Shown: positions 23,319 through 24,533 of the stretch, piece after piece | Layout: the number at the start of each line of letters is the position of its first letter | Position numbering within the stretch: the first letter of the stretch is position 1 | Origin: Escherichia coli | Lineage (GTDB): Bacteria; Pseudomonadota; Gammaproteobacteria; Enterobacterales; Enterobacteriaceae | Reading direction: 5' to 3' (one strand) | DNA: 64,000 bases | Assembly: GCF_003334315.1 (NCBI RefSeq) | Contig: NZ_QOWR01000008.1 | Program-made: the position numbers and the translations under genes | The notes under the pieces: model-generated | What the model was told of the DNA's origin: nothing | What the model saw: only the letters and a program-made list of their open reading frames with translations | The model's database searches: none

Positions 23319-24533
23319 ATGAAAAGAAAAGTTCTGGCAATGCTGGTTCCGGCGTTATTAGTTGCTGGCGCAGCAAATGCGGCTGAAATCTATAATAAAG
23401 ATGGTAATAAACTGGATTTGTACGGAAAAGTAGCGGGCCTGCACTACTTCTCTGATGATGCCGGCAGCGATGGCGACAAGTCATATGCCCGTATCGGTTT
23501 CAAAGGTGAAACTCAGATCGCTGACCAGTTCACTGGTTATGGTCAGTGGGAATACAACCTGCAAGCAAATGGCACAGAAGGCGATGGAGATAACTCTGCT
23601 ACCCGTCTGGCTTTCGCAGGTTTAGGTTTTGGTCAGAATGGTACTTTCGATTATGGTCGTAACTACGGTGTCGTATATGACATCGAAGCATGGACCGATA
23701 TGCTGCCAGAATTTGGTGGCGATACCTATGCTGGTGCCGACAATTTCATGAACGGTCGTACCAACGGTGTTGCAACCTACCGTAACAATGGCTTCTTTGG
23801 TCAGGTTGATGGCTTGAACTTTGCGCTGCAATATCAGAGTAATAATGAAAGTGGCAGTGACAGTCTCTTTGGCCAAGAAGGATCTGGCAGCGGAGATGGC
23901 CGTAGCCTTGCTAAAGAAAATGGCGATGGTTTCGGTATGTCTACTTCCTACGACTTCGACTTCGGTTTAAGTCTGGGTGCTGCTTACTCTAATTCTGACC
24001 GTTCCAATAACCAAGCTGCTCGTGGGTATGGAGATGGCAATCATTTCTATGGTAATAGCTATGCAGGTGGTGGTACTGCAGAAGCGTGGACTGTTGGTGC
24101 TAAATACGATGCCAACAATGTATATTTAGCAGCAATGTATGCAGAGACTCGCAATATGACCGCTTATGGTAGCAGCGACTCTCATTCAGCCGATGGGAAA
24201 CTTGGCGGCGGTGGTATCGCTAACAAAACTCAGAACTTTGAAGTTGTTGCTCAGTACCAATTTGATTTCGGCCTGCGTCCTTCAATTGCTTACCTCCAAT
24301 CTAAAGGTAAGGATTTAGGTGGTCAAGAAATGTACAACAATGGTAATTATCATTATACCAATAAAGATCTGGTTAAATACGTTGAGGTTGGTGCAACCTA
24401 TTACTTTAACAAAAACATGTCCACCTATGTTGATTACAAAATCAACCTGCTGGACAACGACGATGACTTCTACGCAAACAACGGCATCGCTACCGATGAC
24501 ATCGTTGCTGTGGGCTTAGTCTACCAGTTCTAA
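23319..24533 (+). CDS. yedS: OmpC/OmpF-family outer membrane porin YedS (intact)
   Basis: signal peptide [28 protein letters not shown]-terminal VGLVYQF, porin-like beta-strand pattern; uninterrupted frame. Confidence 0.85.

Follow-up and report, generated by a model that had tools for sequence, protein, structure and literature searches.

The closest described systems to the Escherichia coli porin gene yedS are a set of quiescent porins and the promoters of ompC and ompF. Salmonella OmpS1 (STY2203/STM1995) is an OmpC-like quiescent porin with OmpR sites upstream of its gene. In S. Typhi, ompS1 lies under an OmpR peak obtained by chromatin immunoprecipitation and sequencing (ChIP-seq) that contains TGTWACAW motifs, and its expression needs OmpR; in Salmonella the gene is silenced by H-NS/StpA, and the silencing is relieved by LeuO. 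A K. pneumoniae gene annotated as ompS1 also shows OmpR-dependent expression. OmpN, OmpK37 and OmpS2 are quiescent porins encoded next to micC, and the OmpC and OmpF promoters consist of tandem 10-bp OmpR half-sites that abut a weak -35 element. The analysis described here concerns yedS in a 64,000-nucleotide stretch of E. coli DNA (contig NZ_QOWR01000008.1 of assembly GCF_003334315.1), referred to below as the window. Positions are those of the window, and all features are on the + strand unless stated otherwise. The gene in the window is an intact allele of yedS, open where the K-12 copy is broken, and it probably represents a functional allele of a normally quiescent general-diffusion porin gene, with proposed control by OmpR, H-NS and the small RNA (sRNA) RybB.

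The yedS coding sequence (CDS) occupies 23319..24533 and encodes 404 amino acids from an ATG start in a frame that is open throughout, confirming the preliminary description of an uninterrupted porin gene. A signal peptide is encoded at 23319-23381, leaving a mature part of 383 residues, and a Shine-Dalgarno sequence, AAGGGA, is located at 23306-23311 ahead of the ATG. An alternative in-frame ATG at 23289 gives a longer open reading frame (ORF) and is used by some annotators, e.g., in 405-residue entries; it shows no conservation in other genera. Strain TUM1880, whose yedS is 98.9% identical at the nucleotide level, is annotated with a start identical to that at 23319. Gene order in the window is dcm - yedJ - drpB (yedR) - rseX - yedS - hchA - hprSR, and the dcm-yedJ-drpB order is also found around yedS in TUM1880 and MG1655, so that the locus supports the name originally given to the gene. 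The MG1655 annotation treats yedS (b1964-b1966/b4496) as a pseudogene, and alignment and translation reveal two lesions in the K-12 gene, an amber codon at position 162 (CAG to TAG) and a 1-bp deletion near codon 223, in agreement with the earlier description of the K-12 copy as fragmented. The promoter regions of the window and K-12 copies are 97.8% identical. Downstream of the CDS, a terminator scan identifies an intrinsic terminator at about 24576-24613 with a 12-bp stem containing 7 GC pairs and followed by a T run.

YedS is a general porin of the OmpC/OmpF/PhoE type. The closest solved structure is OmpK37 (6v78, E 2e-145), with OmpK36/OmpC, OmpF and PhoE next; PDB matches beyond OmpK37 range from E 1e-121 to 1e-100 and include OmpC (4e-121), OmpF (1e-111) and PhoE (1.5e-110). 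PF00267 is on record for a database protein (P0001) that is identical to the window YedS, and the latter scores 542.7 bits against the NCBIfam model NF007841, for which the cut-off is 484. Identity to the K-12 porins is 70% for OmpN, 66% for OmpC, 63% for OmpF and 61% for PhoE. The signal peptide aligns with that of OmpC, to which it is almost identical, and ends in an A-X-A cleavage motif; the C-terminus (...VYQF) carries the terminal aromatic Phe of porins, and the constriction loop L3 contains the PEFGG motif (DMLPEFGGD). In a 32-sequence porin alignment K37, D121 and R147 are invariant and R96 is nearly so, basic and acidic eyelet residues that we take to correspond to OmpF K16 (K37), R82 (R96), R132 (R147) and D113 (D121). 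An AlphaFold2 (AF2) model built on the same 32-sequence alignment has a predicted TM-score (pTM) of 0.70 and a mean predicted local distance difference test value (pLDDT) of 69. Its strands are parted alternately by turns of 2-5 residues and by long loops, as in a 16-strand barrel, some strands near L3 are broken, and the low-confidence segments are residues 178-195, 237-246, 287-296 and 337-339. On this model, YedS would be exported via its standard signal peptide and fold into a 16-strand trimeric barrel.

The name of the gene in databases requires comment. The NCBI annotation pipeline PGAP names yedS "ompC: porin OmpC" in most complete genomes, identical or near-identical copies among them, and the score above the NF007841 cut-off for "porin OmpC" would seem to bear out the simplest reading of this label, namely that the gene is OmpC. 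The label, however, arises because NF007841 is a subfamily-level model, which OmpN passes as well and with a higher score (593.8 bits). The identity to K-12 OmpC is just 66%, the locus is dcm-yedJ-drpB-rseX/hchA and not micF-ompC, and K-12 has its true ompC elsewhere in addition to the yedS pseudogene at this position. Genomic context and divergence thus rule out OmpC as a name for the gene, and that reading has next to no chance of being correct. Other names in use point to the Salmonella porin: PMC2731931 adds "(ompS1)" to yedS, and "outer membrane protein S1" is the name given to some of the copies in E. coli.

The residues by which YedS exceeds OmpC, 37 in number, are almost wholly contained in the surface loops L4 to L7, where insertions relative to OmpC of 2, 10, 12 and 9 residues, respectively, are located between predicted strands. 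L4 (23838..23927, residues 174-203) lies between the strands at 166-173 and 204-212, has pLDDT values below 50 for residues 178-195, and measures 30 residues as compared with 28 in OmpC and 14 in both OmpF and PhoE. L5 (24000..24074, residues 228-252) has 25 residues as against 15 in OmpC, 14 in OmpF and 14 in PhoE, the range being 14-15 when OmpN is included, and its extension is common to most syntenic orthologues. L6 (24153..24224, residues 279-302) is an allele-specific long form of 24 residues, the counterparts having 12 in OmpC, 17 in OmpF and 11 in PhoE (11-17 in the K-12 porins) and 13 in the common 395-residue E. coli allele; the long form also occurs in the E. albertii protein P0002 and in P0006. 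L7 (24318..24356, residues 334-346) has 13 residues, compared with 12 in OmpN, 4 in OmpC, 3 in OmpF and 3 in PhoE. Gly, Ser, Asp and Asn together make up 55% of the loops and 30% of the remaining mature protein, i.e., the barrel. The two low-complexity peptides singled out in the preliminary description, at residues 176-202 and 292-303, stand opposite gaps in OmpC, OmpF and PhoE and map to L4 and L6. Their placement as surface loops is thus upheld, with further insertions in L5 and L7, and alignment to the three ordinary porins requires gaps throughout L4-L7.

These loops are also where E. coli alleles of the gene differ. The exact window protein is present in a public collection, in which its 90% cluster has 664 member sequences; the next E. 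coli YedS alleles are 84-88% identical to it and are mostly 395 residues long, others having 397-406. Against the commonest 395-residue allele, non-loop residues are 98% identical, as compared with 5 of 26 positions in L5, 8 of 24 in L6 and 5 of 13 in L7 (about 29% over L5-L7). At the DNA level, identity within L5-L7 is 37-56% to K-12 and other Escherichia and that of strand segments 81-100%; individual loops are 46-74% identical between the window and K-12, the latter being the same gene at the same locus with a different loop allele (78% nucleotide identity over L4-L7). A survey of 5426 complete E. coli genomes, in which the L4-L7 coding region was matched by megablast, indicates how these alleles are distributed. 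Flanks and barrel-coding parts matched in 4893 of the genomes, and 533 had no match whatever to the locus query. The L4-L7 region is at least 99% identical to that of the window in 258 genomes (4.8%), 95-99% identical in a single genome, 90-95% in 20, 80-90% in 48 and 60-80% in 571, the last including the K-12 type at 78%; other genomes gave no megablast match over this region. The yedS loop alleles are accordingly discrete classes, and polymorphism at the locus is strong.

The same loops recur outside E. coli. E. albertii P0002 shares 18 of 25 residues with the window protein in L5, 19 of 24 in L6 and 12 of 13 in L7 (79% over L5-L7), and its barrel is 94% identical, which is below the value for E. 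coli alleles. Loop-focused mosaic diversity is the usual pattern for exposed outer-membrane proteins, and variable loops on a near-invariant barrel would be expected if phages, colicins or antibodies exerted diversifying pressure. A possible explanation, which we advance tentatively, is that L4-L7 exist as a small number of ancient, discrete classes of allele, common to different Escherichia species and held by balancing or diversifying selection. No description of loop-level allele diversity was found in the 35 papers identified as mentioning yedS, although the yedR-yedS intergenic region has already been used as a host-source marker. As a separate observation, the 406-residue protein P0004 from an ENA metagenome is essentially the window protein from about residue 144 on (29 of 30 residues in L4, L5-L8 identical), and residues 30-143 are a quite different porin sequence (VDFYGKMVGERIWSNTD...LVEWGGDSW); this chimeric make-up suggests recombination with another porin gene. 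Two strains with the window's yedS allele carry IS1 elements at the locus. In LR-27 the element lies within the 5′ part of the CDS, and in 2018-11-3CC, whose CDS is intact, it is inserted in the 5′ untranslated region (5′ UTR) at the equivalent of 23269-23277, with a 9-bp target duplication, CGGCACTTA, between the promoter and the ribosome-binding site. By analogy with bgl, such an insertion could activate the gene; alternatively, it could silence it.

Upstream of yedS, four OmpR-type half-sites phased at 10 bp occupy 23170..23209 and can be read as two 20-bp dimer sites. The half-sites are GAAACATTTT at 23170, GAAATCTTTT at 23180, AAATACATTT at 23190 and GTTACATGTA at 23200 (boxes 1 to 4). 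Position-weight matrices (PWM) were built from the K-12 ompC C1-C3 and ompF F1-F4 sites, whose sequences were verified in the K-12 promoters and whose boundaries follow Harlocker et al. 1995 and subsequent studies. When both strands of the window (127,962 positions) were scanned, the second-highest score, 13.2 bits, was that of the 20-mer at 23170-23189, a value as good as those of known sites under leave-one-out (F1 12.9, F2 13.3 and C1 10.3 bits), and the half-site at 23170 ranks 6 in the half-site scan. The score of all four boxes in tandem is reached by 5-9 of 1000 dinucleotide shuffles of the AT-rich spacer (p about 0.005-0.009). A published half-site, TTTGTTACAT (PMC5438342), has exactly one occurrence in the window, at 23197-23206. 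Taken alone, the passing of the matrix scan would argue only moderately strongly for OmpR binding. The boxes had been described earlier as GAAACA/GTTACA repeats resembling the OmpR sites of ompC and ompF: the resemblance stands up to the matrix scan, and the word repeats was an overstatement, since boxes 1, 2 and 4 alone are good and conserved. Exact GAAACA and exact GTTACA each occur just once in the boxes (23170 and 23200). The 17-mer GTTACATTTTGTTACAT, allowing up to 3 mismatches, has no match in the yedS region because box 3 is off-consensus.

In comparison with the known promoters, boxes 1-2 of yedS, GAAACATTTTGAAATCTTTT, resemble C1, TTTACATTTTGAAACATCTA, and box 4 resembles the F1 half-site GTTACATATT. 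yedS has two evident 20-bp OmpR sites where the OmpC and OmpF promoters have three, and unlike these promoters it has no identified distal F4-like site and no divergent sRNA sharing the operator. The OmpS1-type motif TGTWACAW is present in one copy, TGTTACAT at 23199-23206, whereas two have been reported for ompS1. A perfect palindrome of 10 bp, TTACATGTAA, lies within box 4 at 23201-23210; it is probably incidental because it is lost in Citrobacter and beyond. The top match of the window to the OmpR matrix is TTTTGGTATTTAAACCTTTT at 32342-32361 (14.9 bits), and GTTGCATTTTGTTATAT at 30598-30614, about 30 bp upstream of an ORF at 30645..31316, has 2 mismatches to the published OmpR 17-mer.

The promoter block is conserved across genera. 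A scan for porin loci in one genome per species, with neighbours checked by tblastn, returned 80 loci, 32 of which adjoin dcm-yedJ(-drpB); syntenic loci are found in Escherichia, Citrobacter, Superficieibacter, Klebsiella, Enterobacter, Lelliottia, Trabulsiella, Buttiauxella, Phytobacter, Pluralibacter and other Enterobacteriaceae. Beyond Citrobacter, sequence identity fails to separate positional orthologues from paralogues, syntenic Enterobacter porins being 71% identical versus 76% for a non-syntenic Serratia porin, and orthologue calls consequently rest on synteny. The 80 loci include none from S. enterica, and the match in S. arizonae is non-syntenic. In K. pneumoniae ATCC 13883 a porin occupies the dcm-yedJ-drpB position; its identification as OmpK37 was rejected, as its match to 6v78 (532 bits) is far below the self-match, so that the two porins are distinct. 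One paper describes a K. pneumoniae strain as lacking yedS, and the gene may be variably present in this species or may be overlooked.

In the upstream 200 bp of 33 syntenic loci from about 12 genera, conservation starts abruptly at box 1 and proceeds through GAAAYATTTTG.AAT......(G/A)TTACAT (boxes 1, 2 and 4), ATAGAATAGTATC, which is nearly invariant, a hairpin, ATTCAT, and AAGGGAATA.ATAATG. Box 1 stands 136-150 bp ahead of the ATG in every syntenic locus, and the aligned site is the top matrix match within the 200 bp in 12 of the 33 sequences. A candidate core promoter, which would be activator-dependent, is located at 23214..23244 with a weak -35, TTAAAA (23214-23219), and overlapping -10 candidates TAGAAT (23234-23239), AATAGT (23237-23242) and TAGTAT (23239-23244). 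From these conserved -10-like hexamers, the transcription start site would be expected at approximately 23246-23252, which would place the boxes at about -80 to -41.

The hairpin of the conserved block (23251..23274, GUGCU...GGCAC) lies at the predicted mRNA 5′ end. Each sequence was folded separately, because multiple alignment with MAFFT misaligns an Escherichia-specific 8-nt insertion, and in loci L007 to L082 the hairpin precedes the porin ATG by about 50-85 bp in most genera. Its stems differ in sequence between genera through compensatory changes: GUGCUUU/AAAGCAC in C. sedlakii, AUGUAGU/ACUACAU in C. werkmanii, GUAACCAC/GUGGUUAC in E. vonholyi and GCAACU/AGUUGC in "Enterobacteriaceae 89". 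The hairpin is strong in other genera and weak in E. coli, where 5 bp are followed by the 8-nt insertion and the folding energy of -5.7 kcal/mol is not significantly different from that of shuffled sequences (-4.6). It may function as a 5′-terminal stabilising stem similar to that of ompA.

OmpR has been shown to bind the nearly identical K-12 copy of the boxes in vivo, and this binding and the cross-genus conservation, as independent lines of evidence, put the reading of the boxes as OmpR sites on a firm footing. In a chromatin immunoprecipitation-exonuclease (ChIP-exo) study of K-12, peak P17, "yedS_1-yedS_2" (2031915-2031974, signal-to-noise ratio (S/N) 20.52), is the sixth strongest of 25 OmpR peaks and is flagged as a novel target (PMC5438342, Suppl. 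Table 1). Using the ompC and ompF peaks as anchors (shifted by 1978 and 777 bp relative to NC_000913.3) together with the K-12/window alignment, P17 projects, without strand, to 23161..23222, with an uncertainty of 2 bp in either direction from the genome-version offset, and is centred on the four boxes. Within them a single base distinguishes K-12 from the window: box 2 has GATATC in K-12 and GAAATC in the window, and the K-12 site scores 12.9 bits. Phosphorylated OmpR (OmpR~P) would occupy two tandem 20-bp sites that abut the weak -35, in the manner of F2-F3 and C2-C3, and would act as an activator. The AT-rich spacer, including rseX, is probably silenced by H-NS under laboratory conditions, as suggested by the behaviour of ompS1, by the published repression of rseX by H-NS, and by the low GC content of the region, which drops to 19.5% at 23100-23299. 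Such silencing would explain why yedS expression is unchanged in a K-12 ompR knock-out.

The sRNA gene rseX is located at 22917..23006, immediately upstream of yedS and in tandem with it, as noted at the outset and now confirmed by a full-length match to Rfam RF01401 (97.7 bits); its intrinsic terminator was found at 22981-23001 by the terminator scan. An sRNA gene and a porin gene are neighbours at micF-ompC and micC-ompN as well. Among the syntenic loci rseX is present in Escherichia only (blastn matches in loci L001 to L006), which makes it a more recent arrival next to a porin promoter that is older. As an additional observation in the spacer, a CRP-type palindrome, TGTGCGCGTGATCACA, is found at about 23024-23045, directly after the rseX terminator, and matches a CRP site at 2033766 that a 2026 Footprint-seq preprint assigns to yedS, with K-12 differing by one base; another, TGTGATAAAAGTCACA, at about 22721-22742 near the drpB start, is given for (yedR) in the same preprint.

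Regulation by RybB is predicted from pairing. A site for the RybB 5′ end is located at 23322..23339 (codons 2-7, +3 to +20), with a duplexfold energy of -18.0 kcal/mol (z -2.9; 1.3% of shuffles do equally well) and with a position and strength like those of ompN (-17.5 kcal/mol) and comparable to ompC and ompF. Repression of yedS mRNA by this sigmaE-dependent sRNA at codons 2-7 would follow the pattern of ompN. A microarray study found the yedS (b1964) transcript to be decreased 2.5-fold on sigmaE induction along with ompC, ompF, ompN and phoE (PMC2731931), a fall to which cross-hybridisation among porin genes may contribute. Pairing of MicF, MicC and MicA with the yedS 5′ region does not exceed that with shuffled targets (z +0.4, -1.0 and -0.3, respectively), and the MicF-ompF and MicC-ompC positive controls worked; the RseX-yedS value (z -0.6) is uninformative because the RseX-ompC control failed. 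OmpN, the closest K-12 porin to YedS, has in common with it long L4 and L7 loops, an adjacent sRNA gene and a predicted RybB site at the start of the coding sequence, and differs in its locus beside micC/ydbK and in having L5 and L6 loops that are 10-11 residues shorter.

Several results weigh against the view of yedS as a functional OmpR-, H-NS- and RybB-controlled porin gene. The confidence of the AF2 model is moderate (pLDDT 69), orthology of yedS and ompS1 rests on names given by others, and a simple consensus promoter scan detects nothing above chance at the expected place. Box 3 is poor, the second 20-mer scores just 1.5 bits, and the single-site score of the best 20-mer is reached by 6-10% of the spacer shuffles (p 0.06-0.10) and is not significant. 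Deletion of ompR causes no change in yedS expression in K-12 (PMC5438342), a strain in which yedS is silent and a pseudogene. Finally, the gene is dispensable and repeatedly decaying, as evident from the K-12 nonsense and frameshift mutations and from IS1 insertion in two strains with the same allele.

The weaknesses of the boxes, and the unchanged expression of the gene on ompR deletion, would be accounted for if the boxes were chance matches in an AT-rich, H-NS-coated spacer instead of a working operator, with OmpR occupancy being non-specific and nucleoid-protein-like. The spacer is 72% AT overall and 80% around the boxes, other AT-rich stretches score alike (the top 40-mer sum under the window background is at 23089), and Perkins et al. 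describe OmpR as behaving like a nucleoid-associated protein. Base composition, however, does not account for conservation across genera that switches on at box 1 and is missing from equally AT-rich DNA just upstream, for the coincidence of the conserved letters with OmpR-contact letters (GAAAY, TG.AAT and TTACAT), or for the fixed spacing of the boxes to the ATG. Non-specific occupancy is also at odds with a strong ChIP-exo peak (S/N 20.5) that spans a sharp 60 bp and has the boxes at its centre, and with the OmpR activation of the counterparts in S. Typhi/Typhimurium and K. pneumoniae. Chance matching is thus an unlikely explanation, and a genuine OmpR operator is the preferred one.

The lesions, in turn, raise the question of whether yedS is a decaying relic without current function, its loops products of slippage-prone neutral drift and its intactness in the window simply the state before the next disruption. 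Two lesions in K-12, IS1 in the LR-27 CDS and the 2018-11-3CC 5′ UTR, the 533 of 5426 genomes without any locus match and the silence of the gene in laboratory K-12 are all compatible with this explanation. Drift would not, however, leave 98% identity in the barrel of alleles that share only about 30% of their loop residues, a contrast that indicates purifying selection on the barrel rather than decay. The pore-lining residues are invariant; the promoter, Shine-Dalgarno sequence and start region are conserved across genera; and the loop classes are discrete without intermediates, with 258 genomes at 99% identity or above and only 1 at 95-99%. YedS is, moreover, reported to work as a porin in carbapenem entry (Warner et al. 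2013). A relic is therefore highly improbable, and the reading of yedS as a functional, normally quiescent porin gene is retained.

Current understanding of yedS is not overturned by these results. The gene, its function and its regulator are already documented, and OmpR binding is already listed in a published table; what is added here is the structure and frequency of the loop alleles, the promoter footprint found across genera, the RybB pairing site predicted at codons 2-7, the conserved 5′-UTR hairpin and the naming problem. Warner et al. 2013 (AAC 57:1935) reportedly describe YedS as a working porin for carbapenem entry, and it can be an alternative route of entry for these drugs once the major porins are lost. 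Later papers cite intact yedS as a porin gene with a part in resistance to carbapenems. The "ompC" label makes genomes seem to carry two ompC genes and can mislead screens for porin loss, and the intactness, loop allele and switch-on of yedS matter for resistance prediction, for phage and colicin receptor range and for outer-membrane vaccine antigens. The conserved promoter with its OmpR sites provides a defined target for expression studies. If balancing polymorphism of the loops is true, this quiescent porin would be regularly expressed and exposed in natural hosts, with OmpR, H-NS and RybB deciding when.

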